64,000 nt of DNA, from assembly GCA_035532355.1 (NCBI GenBank), contig DATKRJ010000215.1, positions 7,247 through 71,246 on the forward strand, read 5' to 3'. Shown one piece after another: positions 48,244-55,937 of this stretch. The notes beneath the pieces are model-generated. The model saw only the letters and a program-made list of their open reading frames with translations, searched no databases and had not been told where the DNA came from. How positions within the stretch are numbered: the stretch's first letter is position 1; the number at the start of each line of letters is the position of its first letter. Origin of the DNA: Thermomicrobiaceae bacterium. Lineage in GTDB: Bacteria > Chloroflexota > Chloroflexia > Thermomicrobiales > Thermomicrobiaceae. The translations under genes and the position numbers were made by a program.

Positions 48244-48281
48244 CCGGGCCGGTCACTCATTTTGACCGGCCCGGTTTTCTT
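48244..48281 (+). terminator. Rho-independent terminator
   Basis: 12-bp stem ccgggccggtca / tgaccggcccgg, a 7-nt loop, then ttttctt. Confidence 0.75.
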
Positions 48282-48308
48282 GTCCCTGCTCGGGTCCGCA
48301 CGGATAAT
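48280..48308 (+). promoter_or_regulatory. Sigma70-like promoter for the second small gene
   Basis: TTGTCC (48280-48285), 17-nt spacer, GATAAT (48303-48308). Confidence 0.45.
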
Positions 48309-48577: not shown

Positions 48578-49126
48578 CTACGCCTCGCCCAGCGGCAGGT
48601 CGTAGCGGCGTCGAATGCTGGAGCCGAGTCGGCCGATGTCGGCGCCGTAGACGTGCAGTGAAATGGCCATGCCCGGCCCCGGGTTCGCCACCTTGTGGAT
48701 GTCGCCCGGCGGGGTGAGGGCCGCCGTCGAGCCCACGGGGTTGACGGAGTGCCCGTCGGCCACCAGCACGGCGGCGTCGTCCCGCTGCTCGAGCCGGTAG
48801 CGGGTCTCGAACTCTTGCCCCTCGTGCACCCCCACCACGCACCACGAGACGTGGTCGTGGATCGGCGTCTCCTGCCCGGGCAGCCAGACCAGCGCCACCA
48901 CCGAGAAGCTCCCGTCGGGCTCGACGTGCAGCACGTGCTGCCGGTAGTGGGACGGGTCCGGCTGACGCTGCGCCTCGGTCAGGAAACTCGGGTCAGCGAG
49001 CAGCGGCGCGAGCACGTCGGCGACCCGGGCTGAGCGCCGCTCGACGTCCGGCTCGTGCGCGATCGCCCCGCGGATGCCCGCGACGAGCTGCTCGAGCGAG
49101 GTATGCCTGGTCGGGGTCATCGTCAT
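48578..49126 (-). CDS. Cysteine dioxygenase type I-like cupin protein
   Basis: YRQHVLHVEPDGSFSVVALVWLPGQETPIHDHVSWCVVGVHEGQE...GDIHKVAN, with cupin His ligands. AAGGAGGG precedes the ATG. Confidence 0.7.
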   Translation of the reverse strand: MTMTPTRHTSLEQLVAGIRGAIAHEPDVERRSARVADVLAPLLADPSFLTEAQRQPDPSHYRQHVLHVEPDGSFSVVALVWLPGQETPIHDHVSWCVVGVHEGQEFETRYRLEQRDDAAVLVADGHSVNPVGSTAALTPPGDIHKVANPGPGMAISLHVYGADIGRLGSSIRRRYDLPLGEA

Positions 49127-49511
49127 CGCCGTTATCCCTCCTTTGGCCGACGCCGGCCGTCCGCTCGTGCCTGCAGACGGGCGTCCGGATGCACTACCAG
49201 GGGATCATATCAACATGATCGCCTGCTCGCCGATCATCTGCCAGCTGCCGCCGCCCGCGCACCGCGTCGTCGCCCTGGCGCGGTTGGCTGGGCGTCCGAA
49301 TTGCCCCCGCGATCTCTGTGCGGCGGCGGAACACGCCGGAGATGACACGGTACTGTCGCGTTTCTGCAATGATCGCCCCTCCTACGTGGACGATTAATGG
49401 ACCATCACGGCGCTAGTCTGACGCGAGTAACTGGACTGCACGGTGCGAGCCGGCCCCGCGTCGGTAGGATGGCCGCGTGATCTGGCCGGCCCGCGGTGAG
49501 AGGAGACCTTC

Positions 49512-51131
49512 ATGCTCCCGACGCGGATCACTCGGTTCCTGGTTGGGTCGCTCCTTCTGCTCGCGCTCATGCCGGCGTTGCCGGCCGCTGCGCAGACACC
49601 CGCCGTCACCACGATCCACCAGTTCGGCACACCCGGCAACGACGATGCGCGCCCCGTCGCGGTCGATGGCGACGGCTACGTCTACGTGGCCGGCTACACC
49701 CCCGGGGTTCTCCGCGGCCAGACGAGCGCCGGTGGTAACGACGCCCTTGTCCGCCAGTACCTCCCGAACGGCTCGGAAGGCTGGACCCGCCAGTTCGGCG
49801 GCTCCGACGATGATTTCGCCTACGGCCTGGCGGTCGACTCGAACGGCAACGTTTAGGTGGCGGGCTACACTCAGGGCGTCTTGCCGGGCCAGACCAGCGC
49901 CGGTTCCGCCGACGCCTTCGTGCGCCAGTACACACGCAGCGGTGTTGAAGGCTGGACTCATCAATTCGGCTCGTCGAGCATCGAATATGCCTACGCCGTT
50001 GCCACCGACGAGGACGGCCACGTCGACGTGGCGGGCCAGACGCTCGGCACCCTGCCCGGTCAGACGAGTGCCGGTGGCTACGACAACTTCTTGCGGCAAT
50101 ACGACGGCAACGGTAACGAGGTCTGGACCCGCCAGTTCGGGGGAACCTCCAGCGAGGCGGTTAGTGGCGTGGCGGTGGACGCTGCCGGCGACATCTACCT
50201 TGCGGGCCTGACGTATGGCACGCTGCCGGGCCAGACCAGCGCGGGAGACAAGGACGGGTATCTGGCCGTCCTGTCCCAGACCGAGACCGACGAAACCGCA
50301 CCGGTGACCACCGCCTCGGTCACGCCGGAGCCCAACGTCAACGGCTGGAACAACAGCCCGGTCACGGTCACCCTTCAATCCAGTGACGAACCGGGTGGCG
50401 CAGGCGTCGAGGCGACCTACTCCATCCTCGACGGCAATCCGCGGCAGTCCTACACCGGGCCTATCGCCGTCACCCTCGAGGGCGTTCACACCCTCCAGTA
50501 CTGGAGCGTTGACGCCGCCGAAAACGTGGAGACTGCCCACTCGCTGACACTGCGGATCGACACCAAGGCCCCTGAGGTGGCTCTTGCCTTCGATCCGGCG
50601 AGTCGAGACCTCTCCGTGACCGCCACCGACGACGGCTCGGGCATCCCCTCGACCGTGCTTGCCAGTCGTGCCGCCGCCGCCTGGACGGCTCAGGACAGCC
50701 TTCCCGCCATCACGACCACCCCGTCGGTGTCCTCCGGGGGTCTGTTCAACGCCGAGCTGCGCACCTACGTCCTGACGGATCGGGCCGGCAACACGCTGAC
50801 CGTCGTCGTCAAGGTGCAGAAGATCGGCGGTCCGGCCTTTGGCACGCTCAACGCGCACGTGGTGAGCGTGCGTTACGGCAGCGGCCCCCCCTATATCCCC
50901 ACCGGACAGCTGCAGGCACAGTGGATCGCCGCGGGTTCGGCCAACCCCCTGATCCTGACCCAGCACTTTCTGTCCGGCAGTGGGATGTCCCGGCAGGAGC
51001 GGACCACCCTCTATACCGGCAGCAGCACCACGGTCTTCGACCTGGTCCACGGCGGCAGCCAGCGACTGAGCGGGATGGCCCTGCCGCAGCTCCACAGCAG
51101 CCAGGGCACGCTGCACATCGACCTGCCGTAG
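49512..51131 (+). pseudogene. Secreted beta-propeller (SBBP-type) repeat protein with C-terminal Ig/OmpL47-like domains, interrupted by one in-frame TAG at 49854-49856
   Basis: The track ORFs 49512-49856 and 49857-51131 share one frame. Signal peptide LLLLALMPALPAAAQ. Repeats G.G.VYVAGYT.G.LPGQTSAG..DAFVRQY. The TAG sits where the other repeats have Tyr or Asp. Confidence 0.7.
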
Positions 51132-51153
51132 TCGCGCCCACGATTGCTCGTAG

Positions 51154-51180
51154 CCGGCCGCCCTCCTGCCGGGCGGCCGG
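51154..51180 (+). terminator. Hairpin terminator after the propeller gene
   Basis: ccggccgccc / gggcggccgg 10-bp stem with a 7-nt loop. The T-tract is weak (ttcgcctttc). Confidence 0.45.
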
Positions 51181-51360
51181 TTCGCCTTTCCGGCCGACCC
51201 GCCCAGCCGCCTCGTCAAACGGCGACCCAACCTCTCGTAGTTGTGCTACGCCAGGACCTTGCTGGGTCCTCTCGATCCCGATTCAGCCATCTGGCTGCCG
51301 CTTCTGTTCCGGGACAAGGATTTGGCGCCCTCCGAGCGCCGGCCCACGTCTCGCCGGGCG

Positions 51361-51390
51361 TTGACATTCCTCGACCGATACCTCTAGAAT
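51361..51390 (+). promoter_or_regulatory. Near-consensus sigma70 promoter of the exporter/GNAT operon
   Basis: TTGACA (51361-51366), 18-nt spacer, TAGAAT (51385-51390). Confidence 0.6.
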
Positions 51391-51396
51391 GGCCGG

Positions 51397-51633
51397 GTCG
51401 GCTTCGCATGGAGCACGTCGCGGCGCAGGCCCTTGGGCATGGGAAGGTACGCTAGATGAGCGCGAACCTCGAATTCCACAGCCGGCTGATGGACCGCTCC
51501 CGTGGTGGCGGTTCCATCGTGCGGCCTGTGGGGCGGAGCTGCCTGCCGGCGGGATGACGTGACGCGCTGACACCAGCTGAGTCAATCCCGCCGCGGGCCG
51601 AGCAACAAAATCTCGCCCGCGGTTTTTGTTTGT
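51397..51633 (+). promoter_or_regulatory. Structured 5' leader (attenuator or riboswitch candidate) ending in an intrinsic terminator
   Basis: Hairpin at 51488-51518. CGGCGGGA (51547-51554) can pair with TCCCGCCG (51586-51593), which overlaps the terminator 5' arm. Two abutting uORFs lie at 51408-51455 and 51456-51557. The first structural gene starts 37 nt after the T-tract. Confidence 0.5.
51591..51633 (+). terminator. Rho-independent terminator inside the leader
   Basis: Stem ccgcgggc(c)gag / ctcgcccgcgg with one bulge, loop caacaaaat, then tttttgtttgt. Confidence 0.7.
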
Positions 51634-51669
51634 CCAGCCAACGGGCGAGCCGTGCAGAGAGGCGAACGC

Positions 51670-52539
51670 ATGCGAACCGGTGGTGGCCAGCCAATTCTTG
51701 CGACCGGAGGTCCCAGGCAGGTCGACGCGGTCGCCGTCGAGCACCTCTCCAAGCGCTTCGTCCGGCGCTCGCTGATCCGGCATCGTCCGATCCAGACGGT
51801 CCACGCGCTCGACGACGTGAGCTTCAGCGTCCGTCAGCAGGAGATCTTCGGCGTCCTCGGGGTGAACGGCTCTGGCAAGTCGACGCTCATCCGAGTTCTT
51901 TCGACGCTGCTGATCCCGGATGCGGGGTCCGTCCGCGTCTTTGGGTACGACATCGGTCGCGACGAGGCGGCGGTGAAGCGCCTGATCAACCGCGTTTCGG
52001 TGGAGGCGTCGTTCTTCAAGAAGCTCTCGGCGATGGAGAACCTGCTCTACGCGGTCCGCCTCTACGGCCGCGGTGGGGCCGGCCTGCGCCGGGAAATCGA
52101 GCAAATTCTGGTGGCGCTGGGGCTGGAGCGCCCCCGCATCGGCCAGCCGCTCGAGCAGCTTTCACGTGGGATGCAGCAGAAGGTGGCGATCGCGCGCGCC
52201 TTCCTGACGTCTCCGGTGCTCCTCCTGCTCGACGAGCCGACTACGGGACTCGACCCGCGCTCGAAGAAGGACGTGCAGGAGTTCGTCATCCGCCTGCGCG
52301 ACGAGCACGACGCCACCATCATCCTGTGCAGCCACGACATGGACGAGGCCGAGCGGCTGTGCGACCGGATCGCCGTGCTCGACGGGGGTCGACTGGTGGC
52401 AATCGACACGCCGACCGGCCTGAGGAGACGGGCCGCCGCGGGGGCCGGCCTACCCGACCTGACCCTCGAGCAGACGTTCATTCAGCTCACGGGTCGGCCG
52501 CCCGACGCGGTCGACGTCGAGGACGGGCAGGTCGCCTGA
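51670..52539 (+). CDS. ABC transporter ATP-binding protein (ABC-2/DrrA-like exporter type)
   Basis: Walker A GVNGSGKST, signature LSRGMQQK and Walker B LLLLDEPTTGLDP. Confidence 0.85.
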   Translation: MRTGGGQPILATGGPRQVDAVAVEHLSKRFVRRSLIRHRPIQTVHALDDVSFSVRQQEIFGVLGVNGSGKSTLIRVLSTLLIPDAGSVRVFGYDIGRDEAAVKRLINRVSVEASFFKKLSAMENLLYAVRLYGRGGAGLRREIEQILVALGLERPRIGQPLEQLSRGMQQKVAIARAFLTSPVLLLLDEPTTGLDPRSKKDVQEFVIRLRDEHDATIILCSHDMDEAERLCDRIAVLDGGRLVAIDTPTGLRRRAAAGAGLPDLTLEQTFIQLTGRPPDAVDVEDGQVA

Positions 52540-52569
52540 CGGCCTGGCGCCGGCGCGAATGGGGGATCG

Positions 52570-53409
52570 ATGGCCGATTCATGGAGTCACTCGTCTCCGG
52601 GAGCCGGGGGACTGTGGCGCGAGGTCAGGGCGTCCTACGCCTTCGTCGAGCGCAACGTGTTCCTGGTCCGCCGTTACTGGGGCTGGGAGATTGCGTTTCT
52701 GGTCTACAACGTCACGTCTTCGCTAAGCGTCATGTACATCGGCAAGGCCCAGCAGGTCCAGGGAGACCAGTTGATCCTGTACCTCGGGATCGGCACGCTC
52801 GTGTGGTCCTACCTGCGCTCGGTGTTCGCGAACATCAGCGAGATGATCTCCTGGGAGCGCTGGGAGGGGACCATCGAGTACACGATGATGGCGCCGGTCT
52901 CACGCCTGACGCACATGCTCGGCGTGTCGCTGTTCAGTGTGGCCTACGGCATCGTTCGCACGGCCGTGCTGCTGGGCGCGCTGGCGCTGTTCTTCGACGT
53001 CAGCCTGGGGCACGCCAACTTCGTCGGAGCGCTGGTCGTCATCCTCATCGGCAGCCTGTCCTTCATCGGCATCGGGATCATGGCGGCCGTCCTGCCGCTC
53101 CTCTTCACCGAGCGGGGTGAGGAGATGACGTTCATCATCTCGTCGGTCCTGCTGCTCGTCTCGGGCGTCTACTACCCGATCTCGGTGCTGCCGGGCTGGA
53201 TGCAGACGGTTGCCCGCATCTCGCCGGCCACCTACGTCCTCGACGGCATGCGCGCCACCGTGCTCGACGGAGCGGGCACCGGGCAGGTCCTCCGCTACCT
53301 GGTGCCGATGGCGCTCATCGGCGCGATCACCATTCCGCTCGGCATGGCCGTCTTCTCGTCGGTCGAGCGCTACGCCAAGCGAACTGGACGCCTGAAGCGC
53401 AGCGGCTAG
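52570..53409 (+). CDS. ABC-2 type transporter permease
   Basis: About 6 TM helices. N-terminal FVERNVFLVRRYWGWEI typical of ABC-2 permeases. Follows the ATPase by 30 nt. Confidence 0.75.
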   Translation: MADSWSHSSPGAGGLWREVRASYAFVERNVFLVRRYWGWEIAFLVYNVTSSLSVMYIGKAQQVQGDQLILYLGIGTLVWSYLRSVFANISEMISWERWEGTIEYTMMAPVSRLTHMLGVSLFSVAYGIVRTAVLLGALALFFDVSLGHANFVGALVVILIGSLSFIGIGIMAAVLPLLFTERGEEMTFIISSVLLLVSGVYYPISVLPGWMQTVARISPATYVLDGMRATVLDGAGTGQVLRYLVPMALIGAITIPLGMAVFSSVERYAKRTGRLKRSG

Positions 53410-53451
53410 GCCGCGCGACGACGCGTTTCGAGACGTGTGAAAGGAGTACCC

Positions 53452-53967
53452 GTGCGAGCCGTCTACCTGACCGGTCCGACCGTCTACCTGCGCGCCCTCG
53501 CCGAGAGCGACGCGGAGTCGGCCGCGGCCTGGTTCGACAGCCTCTTCCCGATCAACGCCTCCCGCGCGGCCGAGTTTCTCCGTGAGGAGCACCAGGAGCC
53601 CTGGTCCAGGCGCCGGACACTGGCCATCGCGCGCAACGACGGCGGCGAGGTCGTCGGCGGAGCCCGCCTGCGCATCGATGGCCGCTCGGCTCAGCTCGGA
53701 TTCCACATGGCGCCGTGGGCGCCCGACGCGGACGACCTGCGCGGCGAGGCGCTGGGCCTGCTGGTGCCGTGGCTGCGCGGTGAATTGGAGTGCCTGGTCG
53801 TCAGCACCGAGATTCCGGCCGACGAGGCCGCGACGCTGCGGGCAGCGGAAGCCGCGGGGATGCGCTGCCGCGTGCGCCTGCGCGAGCACGTGGCGCGCGG
53901 CGGCCAGCGGGTCGACCTGCTCATCTACCAGTCCGTCGACCCCACGCTGGAGGGCGCCGATGCGTAA
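53452..53967 (+). CDS. GNAT family (RimJ/RimL-like) acetyltransferase paralogue 1, with a degenerate acetyl-CoA motif
   Basis: AAGGAG lies 5 nt before the GTG. The N-terminus VYLRALAESDAESAAAWF parallels the next two genes. The R-G-x-G-x-G position reads DADDLRGEA. Confidence 0.65.
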   Translation: MRAVYLTGPTVYLRALAESDAESAAAWFDSLFPINASRAAEFLREEHQEPWSRRRTLAIARNDGGEVVGGARLRIDGRSAQLGFHMAPWAPDADDLRGEALGLLVPWLRGELECLVVSTEIPADEAATLRAAEAAGMRCRVRLREHVARGGQRVDLLIYQSVDPTLEGADA

Positions 53968-54568
53968 CCAGATCCTTGCCGGCGAGCGGCTGTACCTCCG
54001 CCCCCTCGAGACGTCCGACGCCGCCTCGCTTGCGGCGTTCTCCGCCGCCGAGACGGAAAGCTTCTTCGACGAAGGGCGCGTGCCGCACAGCCCGATCGCC
54101 CTCGAGCACTGGATCACGGAGCTCCACCGGCGGCAGCCGCCACGTGCGATCCAGCTCGCCGTCTGTCTGCGCGAGGACGACCAGTTCATCGGCATGCTCG
54201 GCGTCTCGAGGCTGGACTGGGTGAACCGGACCGGCGAGAGCGAGAGCTACCTGGGCGACGTCGCCGCGCGCGGCAAGGGCTACGGCCCGGAGGCAAAGTG
54301 GCTGCTGCTGGAGTACATCTTCGACCATCTGCAGCTCCACGTCATCCGGTCGTTCGTCTGGCAGCCGAACTGGCGCTCGGCCGCCGCGGTGCGCCACCAG
54401 GGCTACCGGGAGGCCGGCCGGCTCCAGACAACCGCCACGAAGCACGGGGTCTACCAGGGGGAGTTCGTCTTCGACCTGCTGCGCGACGAGTACCTGGCCG
54501 GTCGCGAGCGCTGGCGCGCCGAGCAGGCGGGGCGGAAGCAGCGCGTGACCGGCGCCATCGGTGCGTGA
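53960..54568 (+). CDS. GNAT family (RimJ/RimL-like) N-acetyltransferase paralogue 2
   Basis: LYLRPLETSDAASLAAF and motif A ARGKGYGPEA. Overlaps paralogue 1 by 8 nt. Confidence 0.8.
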   Translation: MRNQILAGERLYLRPLETSDAASLAAFSAAETESFFDEGRVPHSPIALEHWITELHRRQPPRAIQLAVCLREDDQFIGMLGVSRLDWVNRTGESESYLGDVAARGKGYGPEAKWLLLEYIFDHLQLHVIRSFVWQPNWRSAAAVRHQGYREAGRLQTTATKHGVYQGEFVFDLLRDEYLAGRERWRAEQAGRKQRVTGAIGA

Positions 54569-54572
54569 GCCA

Positions 54573-55154
54573 ATGGCTCGCGGCCCGCGGGTGTATCTGA
54601 GGCCGCTCGAGGAGTCCGACGCCGCCGCACTGGCCGGCTTCACCGCGGACGAGACCGAGACGTTCTTTCTCGGCCGCGGTCGCATCCCGGCTAGCCCGCT
54701 TGCATTCGCCGCGTGGATCCGCAACATCGGCGCGCGGCAGCCGCCTCAGACGCTGGAGCTGGCCGTCTGCCGCGTCACCGATGACCACCTGCTGGGCTAC
54801 GTCGGCGTCTGGGAACTGGACTGGGTACACGGCACGGGCGAGGTCGACATCGCGCTGTGGCCCGCGTCGGAGCGCGGCCGGGGATACGGCACTGAGGCGC
54901 TGCGACTGCTGCTCGACCTCACGTTCGGCACGTATCAGCTGCGCGCCCTGCGTGCCTTCGTCTGGAGCGCGAACGCCCGCTCGGCGGCTGTCCTCACGCG
55001 CGTCGGGTTCCGACCGGCCGGGCGTCTCCGCACCGCGGTGGTCAAGAGCGGGTTTCATCTCGACCAGCGGGCCTTCGACATGACGGACCGCGACTGGTTG
55101 AGCCCGGTTCGAGCCGGGAACACCAAGATCTGCAGCGGCACGTATCAAGTTTAG
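54573..55154 (+). CDS. GNAT family (RimJ/RimL-like) N-acetyltransferase paralogue 3
   Basis: VYLRPLEESDAAALAGF and motif A ERGRGYGTEA. Starts 5 nt after paralogue 2. Confidence 0.8.
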   Translation: MARGPRVYLRPLEESDAAALAGFTADETETFFLGRGRIPASPLAFAAWIRNIGARQPPQTLELAVCRVTDDHLLGYVGVWELDWVHGTGEVDIALWPASERGRGYGTEALRLLLDLTFGTYQLRALRAFVWSANARSAAVLTRVGFRPAGRLRTAVVKSGFHLDQRAFDMTDRDWLSPVRAGNTKICSGTYQV

Positions 55155-55199
55155 TTCGCCGGTCCCCATAAGAGCGTCGGCGATCTGGCATACTTCTCG

Positions 55200-55937
55200 A
55201 TGTCCCGTTCATGTTCCGGGACCAGAACGCGAGGAACCGTGCTTCTGCTCTCCCTGTTCTTCCTCCTCGGCGTGGCGGCGCTGAGTGTCACCGCCGCGGT
55301 TGGCACAAACCTGGCCGCGCTCAGCGCGCTCCTCGCCGCGCCCGGTCAGTTCGGGCTGCTCTTGCGTGACCGGCACGCCCGCCGCAACCTCGCCCTGGGT
55401 CACGCGACGGTCAACATCTTGCGGCAGCGCTCCGGGCACTCGGGTCTGGTCGCGCTGGCGAGCCCCGCGGGGTTCGTCGTCCGGGGCGGAGCCTCTCCGG
55501 CCATGGTCGCGGACGCGGCGTCCGAGGCGCTGGCTCGACTGCGCGCCGGAGAACGAACGCTGGCGGTCGATCCGCGCAGCGCCGCCGCCCTGCTGGCGAC
55601 GGACATGGGGCTGGCTGCTGCCGTCGTTGCGGTGCTGCTCCTCACCGATACCTCCGGTCTGGCCGCGGCAATCGCGGGCCTCGCGCTGGTGGCGCTCGTC
55701 GGTCCGCGCCTCAGCTCCGTCCTGCAGCGACACCTCACGACCGACGCGCACCTGGGTTCGCTGGCCATCAGGGGGATCCAAATCGAGGCCCCGTCCGGAA
55801 TCCGCGGTCTGCTCACGCTGGTGATGCTGGGACCGGTGCTCGTTCAAACGTCCGACGTACAAACCGCGGCGCCGGTCGACCGGCAGACTCCACCGATGCG
55901 GGAGATGATCGCGGTCGAGAACTTCACGGTGCGCTAA
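55200..55937 (+). CDS. Hypothetical Ala/Leu-rich membrane protein
   Basis: 245-aa ORF with at least three hydrophobic segments (LLLSLFFLLGVAALSV, LAAAVVAVLLL, LAAAIAGLALVALV). No family was recognised. Same strand, 45 nt after GNAT 3. Confidence 0.5.
   Translation: MSRSCSGTRTRGTVLLLSLFFLLGVAALSVTAAVGTNLAALSALLAAPGQFGLLLRDRHARRNLALGHATVNILRQRSGHSGLVALASPAGFVVRGGASPAMVADAASEALARLRAGERTLAVDPRSAAALLATDMGLAAAVVAVLLLTDTSGLAAAIAGLALVALVGPRLSSVLQRHLTTDAHLGSLAIRGIQIEAPSGIRGLLTLVMLGPVLVQTSDVQTAAPVDRQTPPMREMIAVENFTVR

Follow-up and report, generated by a model that had tools for sequence, protein, structure and literature searches.

What controls the DrrAB-like ATP-binding cassette (ABC-2) exporter operon that begins at position 51670 of a 64,000-nucleotide stretch of Thermomicrobiaceae bacterium DNA (contig DATKRJ010000215.1; hereafter the window, counted from its first letter), and what kind of element is the leader at 51361-51669 in front of it? 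A first-pass annotation, made from the sequence alone, had read this leader as an attenuator or an unclassified riboswitch. Here, we find that it is probably a leader-peptide (ribosome-mediated) transcription attenuator that controls the exporter together with the GNAT acetyltransferase genes of the operon. Specifically, a promoter and an intrinsic terminator lie 5' of the genes, an upstream open reading frame (uORF) carries a Shine–Dalgarno (SD) sequence, and an antiterminator that is mutually exclusive with the terminator overlaps the region a ribosome would cover. Comparison of related sequences establishes the architecture, its conservation, the co-variation of its pairing and a coding constraint on a motif at the end of the uORF. 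This conserved C-terminal peptide motif, the fact that the antiterminator is built from its codons and a frameshift in the window's copy of the motif were all absent from the first-pass annotation.

The window's leader by itself is statistically unremarkable, and a 33-codon open reading frame is ordinary in GC-rich DNA; the leader stands beyond chance because its promoter, uORF, motif, stop position, antiterminator and terminator are conserved in related genomes. We aligned homologues of the permease and fetched 80 loci from species-representative genomes, plus a few closer relatives through exact protein look-up; loci carry L-numbers (e.g. L084), L001 being the window's own. With the leader as blastn query, the terminator region was matched in 11 Thermomicrobiales loci at 72-83% identity, and the order of elements in these 11 leaders is uniform: promoter, SD sequence, uORF, small hairpin, terminator. 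The design recurs in 48 of the 69 assessable loci, L001 included, upstream of a DrrAB-like ABC-2 ATPase/permease pair with GNAT genes, and these 48 loci belong to Thermomicrobiales, Anaerolineae, Limnocylindria and other Chloroflexota. The motif was absent from the loci labelled Bipolaricaulota, Fraserbacteria or Acetothermia. A systematic scan found a terminator-like hairpin 5' of the ATPase gene in 57 of the 67 loci with enough upstream sequence.

Within the 48 leaders, the uORF ends in [G/C]-R-S-[L/V/A]-P followed by 3 or 5 codons (rarely 2, 4 or 7-10) and a stop, which lies 13-41 nt, mostly 28-41 nt, 5' of the hairpin; uORF length in the family is 28-45 codons, and an example of the consensus peptide is MTTNFLASTAATALRIVAPMGAPVRGRSVPFLT. 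SD-like sequences precede the homologous uORFs in most leaders. Promoter conservation was checked in 18 Thermomicrobiales leaders plus L053 and L077: a TTGAC(A/T) -35 element and a TA-rich -10-like hexamer stand at constant distance in 18/18 of the former and also in the latter two.

In line with this family design, each element can be located in the window, always on the forward (+) strand. The proposed promoter is TTGACA (51361-51366), an 18-nt spacer and TAGAAT (51385-51390), as the first-pass annotation had it; it matches 11 of 12 consensus positions and is conserved in relatives, and a scan of 8 kb gave two promoter-like sites, this one among them, where 0.3 were expected; transcription is predicted to start near 51397. 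The two abutting uORFs of that annotation are present at 51408-51455 and 51456-51557, as is GGGAAGG at 51441-51447, 8 nt 5' of the ATG at 51456. A role for the first, 15-codon uORF is unsupported, as this frame has no SD sequence and no counterpart in 17 related leaders. The second, of 33 codons plus TGA, encodes MSANLEFHSRLMDRSRGGGSIVRPVGRSCLPAG and is homologous to, and in frame with, the uORFs of L084 and L095 as far as G-R-S. By codon comparison with these two relatives and the codon table, its C-terminal motif codons, here G-R-S-C-L-P, lie at 51531-51548.

The antiterminator 5' strand, GCCTG-c-CGGCGGG (51541-51553), lies within and just beyond these motif codons, and its 3' partner, CCCGCCG-CGGGC (51587-51598), spans the whole 8-nt base of the terminator 5' arm. 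The helix has 12 bp with one bulged C and a duplex energy of -29.1 kcal/mol, and the stop codon begins 1 nt 3' of its 5' strand. The 8-nt complementarity reported earlier between CGGCGGGA (51547-51554) and TCCCGCCG (51586-51593) is thus real but was drawn too short, the strand being 13 nt long. The helix encloses a small hairpin, H (51560-51584, -9.2 kcal/mol), between the stop codon and the terminator. The arms of hairpin H compensate within Thermomicrobiales, e.g. CGTGAT/ATCACG versus TGAGT/ACTCA, and Limnocylindria have GGCGG/CCGCC-type hairpins in its place. The terminator noted in the first pass at 51591-51633 is also borne out: its hairpin (51591-51622) consists of 8 bp, a bulged C, 3 bp and a 9-nt loop, is followed by the T-tract TTTTTGTTTGT (51623-51633), and has an energy of -21.3 kcal/mol (z = -3.2). 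A simple terminator scanner did not flag it, because of the 9-nt loop and the bulge.

In support of a switch, the two partners have changed together. The motif codons and the next one or two codons are complementary to the terminator 5' arm and loop in every lineage, and the sequences differ by lineage: TCTGCCTG pairs with CGGGCAGA in Thermomicrobiales, GATCTG-t-GCCC with GGGC-CAGATC in Limnocylindria, ATTGCGCC with GGCGCAAT in a first group of Anaerolineae, and CCGCAG-t-GCGCC with GGCGC-CTGCGG in a second (TCGCAG...CTGCGA in L032). Over 18 non-redundant lineages, the duplex with the own partner has an energy of -22.7 kcal/mol versus -17.5 ± 0.8 kcal/mol for partners swapped between lineages, and none of 7,330 derangements was as good as the own partners. 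A control window of equal size just upstream in the same leader gave -17.6 kcal/mol. Aligning homologous leaders, a check suggested in the first-pass annotation, thus finds the pairing conserved and co-varying between classes and the coding of the motif conserved. Its central proposal, that a ribosome finishing the second uORF masks the antiterminator arm, gains comparative support from the uORF, stop, co-varying pairing and terminator conserved in 48 leaders. Since loops and 3' arms fail to align across classes, RNAalifold on a cross-class alignment recovered just the four core antiterminator pairs that are invariant. In Thermomicrobiales, each of the two structures is some 80% paired, compared with about 40% in slid controls.

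Folding of the growing transcript is consistent with the same alternation. When the nascent RNA up to the terminator loop was folded without constraint, at least 60% of the 5'-arm bases paired with the motif region in the minimum free energy (MFE) structure of 37 of the 48 leaders. With the full-length leader, the MFE structure contains the terminator in 39 of 48 cases; on average, its stability is greater by 10.5 kcal/mol. In the window, the MFE structure of nascent RNA 51456-51611 contains the antiterminator around hairpin H (z = -3.4). Before the terminator arm is made, at least 8 of the 15 core bases of the motif strand pair upstream in 37 of 48 leaders. In many lineages, the motif strand can pair with the SD-AUG region of the uORF, over as many as 13-18 contiguous bp in Anaerolineae, and own partners again exceed swapped ones (-20.3 versus -17.4 kcal/mol, p about 0.001); the window shows such pairing only weakly. 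This makes for a trp-like layout of four segments, in which the first pairing would sequester the ribosome-binding site of the uORF. In the Anaerolineae loci L046, L053, L054, L058, L060, L034 and L038, the sequence directly 5' of the uORF start codon together with that codon (e.g. GGCGCAAT-ATG) nearly duplicates the terminator 5' arm and loop.

That the uORF is read as an open reading frame is supported by its SD sequence, in-frame start, stop position and synonymous turnover. An SD-linked start codon is in frame with the motif in 43 of the 48 leaders. Counted from the first base of the Pro codon, the motif-frame stop is 12 or 18 nt away in 39 of 47 related leaders, whereas the first stops of the other two frames are scattered (medians 15 nt for the motif frame versus 34 and 62 nt). 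At the motif, all six Arg codons occur (AGA 8, CGG 7, CGT 6, CGC 5, AGG 4, CGA 4), and Ser is written as AGT, TCT or TCC, from both codon families; this use of six Arg codons and two Ser families points to selection on amino acids at the motif. NGRSLPVGG is invariant across 15 variants of one protein cluster. Additionally, 14 of 31 non-redundant peptides carry a second element, R/K-x-R/K, at a distance of 12-17 residues (mostly 14-17) on the N-terminal side of the Pro. Shuffles gave 2.0 ± 1.3 expected occurrences, and none of 2,000 was as high. It is often R-L-R, R-I-R or R-M-R, and the window has R14-S15-R16 (51495-51503) at that position, which in the ancestral frame is 14 residues ahead of the motif Pro.

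On this basis, we propose the following mechanism. Transcription would start at the sigma-70-type promoter near 51397, and the open reading frame at 51456-51557 would be translated, its last ~8 codons doubling as the antiterminator 5' strand. Pairing of 51541-51553 with 51587-51598 would sequester the base of the terminator 5' arm. A ribosome protects roughly 12-15 nt on each side of its P site. With the motif Pro codon in the A site, or with a ribosome waiting at the stop 3-5 codons on, the footprint would cover the antiterminator strand, the terminator would fold, and the transcript would end after about 235 nt. Conversely, if the leading ribosome were at least ~5 codons upstream when the 5' arm is made, the strand would be free and pair first, and polymerase would read into the operon. 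Translation stress could cause such an upstream delay, and a possible site for it is the conserved R-x-R, 14-17 residues ahead of the Pro. The sequence [G/C]-R-S-[L/V/A]-P-x3/5-stop would most likely slow elongation or termination, parking the ribosome on the antiterminator strand and making off the default. The gene content and the R-x-R point to translation stress or a ribosome-targeting compound as the putative inducer, and drug inducibility is plausible from the exporter and GNAT context together with the R-x-R.

Several observations weigh against this reading, in whole or in part. The core pairs hardly vary within Thermomicrobiales; given so little variation within the order, the co-variation evidence is evidence between classes, carried by the lineage-permutation test. 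The [L/V/A] codon is always CTG, GTG or GCG (NNG), so part of the motif's conservation acts at the RNA level. Substitutions over the whole uORF between close relatives show no codon-position bias (107/108/116); just a small part of the peptide is therefore constrained, and the claim of selection on the peptide rests on the motif. Leader peptides are usually constrained over a small part only. The fold of the whole leader, another check proposed with the first-pass annotation, is not significantly stable in the window alone (z = -1.4). The direction of the switch and the pausing of the ribosome are deduced from footprint geometry, and the inducing signal comes likewise by inference. Finally, start codon and motif are in different frames in 5 of the 48 leaders: the window (51538/51539), L039 (~1747-1790), L041 (~1932-1975), L078 (~1606-1650) and L082 (~715-750). 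Each break is a single-base indel within the motif or immediately ahead of it that leaves the RNA pairing intact, and the stop of the alternative frame is no more than about 8 nt from the ancestral one. These breaks may reflect tolerated decay, assembly errors in some genomes or a function. At least transiently, then, the leader can do without the peptide motif, and the RNA switch with the ribosome's path appears to be the primary constraint, the peptide motif being a second layer that can be lost. Programmed frameshifting was considered for these leaders and rejected: the directions of the shift differ (-1 in the window and L082, +1 in L039), and there is no slippery site.

The window's own frame break bears on the rival explanation that survives best, namely that the leader is, in this organism, a decaying relic that either terminates or reads through constitutively, a 1-nt deletion having destroyed the function of the peptide. 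Compared with L084 (...GTG GGG CGG AGT GTG CCC GCC GGA GGG GTG CCT TGA) and the equivalent sequence of L095, the window (...GTG GGG CGG AG- CTG CCT GCC GGC GGG ATG ACG TGA) lacks one base between 51538 and 51539, the third of the motif Ser codon. This deletion is common to three assemblies from three sample accessions and is therefore taken as real. Additionally, the inner stem of the window's terminator departs from the family consensus (GGGCCGAG versus GGGCAGAG). Against decay, the promoter, SD sequence, uORF, stop, 12-bp antiterminator helix and strong terminator are all intact, and the shifted frame still encodes R-S-C-L-P and follows nearly the ancestral path of the ribosome: it reads G-R-S-C-L-P-A-G-stop (TGA 51555-51557), in place of the ancestral G-R-S-L-P-A-G-G-M-T-stop (TGA 51560-51562), and so ends 5 nt earlier. 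The first-pass remark that the second uORF stops directly after the antiterminator arm accordingly needs splitting: a stop close to this position is conserved, but the stop codon that the window uses comes from the lineage-specific deletion, and the family frame would give ...SLPAGGMT*. We regard outright decay as unlikely; in the window, the RNA switch and the ribosome's path are intact, and the peptide-dependent layer may be weakened.

A second rival takes the small open reading frame for a functional peptide, bacteriocin-like, akin to ribosomally synthesized and post-translationally modified peptides (RiPPs) or a partner of the transporter, with a leaky terminator setting the ratio of peptide to transporter. 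A small conserved open reading frame, a terminator, an ABC exporter and acetyltransferases do resemble a peptide-export cluster, and gene callers annotate some of the peptides; by exact look-up, some occur in public protein sets, solely as 'hypothetical protein'. NCBIfam gave no match for three leader peptides, and a profile search of a 5.8-billion-protein set with a 34-peptide alignment gave none at E <= 0.01, the peptides being too short. Co-varying complementarity between codons and a terminator arm across classes would, however, be unexpected for a structural gene; most of the peptide is unconstrained, evolving without codon-position bias, and frameshifted copies persist. Moreover, Pfam searches of the adjacent open reading frames (48578-55937) recognized no RiPP-modifying or processing enzyme and no peptidase. 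This explanation is improbable.

Could the leader instead be a ligand- or protein-binding RNA, that is, the unclassified riboswitch of the first-pass annotation or a protein-dependent attenuator, in which the uORF is incidental? Riboswitches, too, use alternation of terminator and antiterminator as their expression platform, shuffled sequences fold less well than the nascent leader (51456-51611), as given above, and frameshifts are tolerated in five leaders. Yet outside the helices what is conserved is amino acids and not nucleotides, the conserved core being a reading frame with synonymous codon turnover. The SD sequence, start codon and stop position are conserved in one frame only, and the alignments show no unpaired 'aptamer' core that is conserved. 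In agreement with the earlier failure to match the T-box, ykkC/guanidine, TPP, fluoride or SAM consensus, the Rfam covariance scan of the window was empty: no Rfam 15 family reached its gathering threshold in the window or in 8 representative leaders, and E-value mode returned noise (E > 3). A riboswitch is thus an improbable account. That the elements stand together by chance, or make up a small RNA gene of their own with no relation to the ABC operon, is barely credible: the whole-leader fold is insignificant and short open reading frames are common in GC-rich DNA, but the arrangement is kept 5' of the orthologous transporter in 48 loci, and the promoter scan of the window found no further promoter-like site between the terminator and the ATPase start, 36 nt downstream.

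How does the attenuator that we favour relate to known systems? Ribosome-mediated transcription attenuation is itself already known; the present leaders lie outside every Rfam family and have no match in Pfam or NCBIfam. Attenuators of the trpL/hisL type follow a four-segment logic (1:2, 2:3, 3:4), with a stop placed so that a terminating ribosome masks segment 2. Similarly, the motif strand of many Chloroflexota leaders can pair either with an upstream segment or with the terminator arm. Here, however, the leader lacks runs of regulatory codons and its segment 1 overlaps the SD-AUG of the uORF itself; conservation falls on a C-terminal peptide motif, and the genes are an exporter and acetyltransferases. 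TnaC senses tryptophan and controls Rho-dependent termination. As in TnaC, the conserved residues lie a few positions before the stop, and the position of the ribosome at the end of the open reading frame would decide downstream termination; unlike there, the terminator is intrinsic.

The leader of bmrB-bmrCD in Bacillus subtilis, which the first-pass annotation had invoked, shares a translated leader open reading frame, alternative stem-loops and an intrinsic terminator 5' of an ABC exporter (abstract of PMC4191407). According to that abstract, it is induced by antibiotics that target protein synthesis, and translation of the leader is required. The two differ in that BmrCD is a heterodimeric type-I ABC exporter with the terminator inside bmrB, whereas here it is an ABC-2 system; the abstract mentions neither a conserved C-terminal peptide motif nor co-variation between codons and terminator (PMC4191407). 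In this comparison by description, no sequence relationship between the two was seen. The logic proposed here would agree with that shown for bmrB-bmrCD (PMC4191407).

The 'RAPP-like' arrest peptides of the SecM/ApdA/RQH kind are likewise encoded by short regulatory open reading frames with a C-terminal Arg-x-x-Pro near the stop, have little conservation upstream and are widely spread (PMC10987492, PMC10951233). Their motifs are RAPP, RGPP, RAGP, RAPG, RGSP and others (PMC10987492); R-S-[L/V/A]-P is not in that list and does not fit the pattern R/H/Q-A/G-P/G-P. They lie 5' of secA, secDF or yidC and, instead of working through a terminator, affect how translation of the next gene is initiated (PMC10987492, PMC10951233), whereas here the genes encode an ABC-2 ATPase/permease and GNATs, and arrest is putative. 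R-x-R is the macrolide/ketolide stalling motif of ErmDL (PMC8298421), and its enrichment here at a fixed distance, with R14-S-R16 in the window, recalls such macrolide-type +x+ peptides; a stall at this site would leave the antiterminator strand free. On the other hand, it occurs in just 14 of the 31 peptides, the downstream genes are not erm or ABC-F, and drug dependence is hypothetical. Alternatively, R-x-R could be a tunnel-contacting part of an intrinsic arrest sequence. A full-text literature search retrieved no described ABC-transporter leader or arrest peptide from Chloroflexota and no attenuator for this operon, which is absence of evidence only.

Relative to these systems, three features of the family are distinctive. 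First, it is spread over several classes of one phylum. Second, the codons of the C-terminal motif are themselves the antiterminator strand, placing the same bases under both peptide and pairing constraint. Third, in many lineages the first segment overlaps the ribosome-binding site of the uORF itself. It is mainly the family, more than the window's somewhat degenerate copy, that is of interest. A bolder reading, tentative and in our view doubtful, is that these leaders encode a hitherto unrecognized, phylum-wide class of bipartite regulatory nascent peptides composed of R-x-R, 11-13 residues, [G/C]-R-S-[L/V/A]-P, 3 or 5 residues and a stop. The nucleotides of the stall site would be the antiterminator, and arrest would be read out as intrinsic termination; such a peptide might sense a natural product or metabolite that binds the ribosomal tunnel, and so switch on an exporter/acetyltransferase detoxification module.

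Further features accompany the design in the window or in parts of the family. The bulged hairpin described in the first pass at 51488-51518 is present inside the uORF and extends over 51485-51522 (-19.6 kcal/mol, z = -2.5); it may serve as a spacer or make the ribosome or polymerase pause. The near relatives L084, L095 and L096 have comparable hairpins, and a family-wide one is unsupported (mean z = -1.1). In L053, a second terminator-like hairpin with the similar stem GCCGCGGGC...GCTCGCGGC and a T-tract stands at 1835-1870. L046, L054, L058 and L060 have one too; in all five loci it lies ~45-70 nt 3' of the leader terminator and before the ATPase gene, and looks like the second of tandem terminators. 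L011, L016, L018 and L022 carry a terminator 5' of the ATPase gene and a uORF whose C-terminus departs from R-S-[L/V/A]-P, e.g. ...ARLRPPAPSRESPC*, and may be divergent variants of the same leader. No second copy of the leader element was found in the window. An exact-pattern scan of metagenome contigs with the terminator consensus returned 8 matches, all unrelated terminators or coding sequence, and was set aside.

Downstream of the leader, the first regulated gene (51670-52539, +; SD sequence AGAGG at 51656-51660) encodes a DrrA-like ABC ATPase (PF00005, 1e-28; TIGR01188 drrA, 1e-66, below the curated cut-off in NCBIfam), and the second (52570-53409, +) a DrrB-like ABC-2 permease. They are followed by a 171-aa protein without family, two GNAT acetyltransferases and a DUF6391 protein. 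Across the operon, Pfam and NCBIfam returned just generic DrrA/DrrB-like matches under curated cut-offs, GNAT and DUF6391. The genes of the 171-aa protein (53452-53967; no Pfam or NCBIfam match) and the DUF6391 protein (55200-55937) recur in Thermomicrobiales loci. Among named homologues, those closest to the permease are from metagenome-assembled genomes of Thermomicrobiaceae, Sphaerobacter and Nitrolancea. The permease is unusually conserved for its class, with 52-79% identity across Chloroflexota genome loci and up to 85-93% among metagenome proteins, including invariant stretches such as WERWEGTIEYTMMAP. GNAT genes stand beside the transporter in three classes, Thermomicrobiales, Limnocylindria and Anaerolineae. 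The conservation of the permease and the company of GNATs suggest a core function, and an exporter with GNATs in three classes fits a stress or detoxification module.

The 5' neighbour of the leader region is a gene for an SBBP-repeat protein (49857-51131). Just 3' of it, a GC-rich hairpin, GCCGGCCGCCC...GGGCGGCCGG, with a weak T-tract (51151-51183) is probably that gene's terminator, separating it from the leader promoter. Farther upstream, a strong terminator-like hairpin of 12 bp with 10 GC pairs (48244-48308) is followed by TTTTCTTGTC, and directly 3' of this hairpin lies TTGTCC-17-GATAAT, the sole other promoter-like site in the 8-kb scan.

Soils, sediments and wastewater harbour abundant Chloroflexota, whose gene regulation has, to our knowledge, been little studied experimentally. 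With this family, the phylum would gain a well-defined cis-regulatory system, in which a cross-class leader peptide, a doubly constrained motif and a structural switch act on a conserved exporter/GNAT operon. A model of the ~100-135-nt uORF plus terminator could serve annotation, giving such leaders, and the 'hypothetical protein' calls within them, their correct labels. If the motif is an arrest sequence, it would be a new motif class beside SecM, RAPP and TnaC, acting through an intrinsic terminator; and if the inducer is a translation inhibitor, the operon would be a candidate intrinsic resistance module in environmental bacteria.

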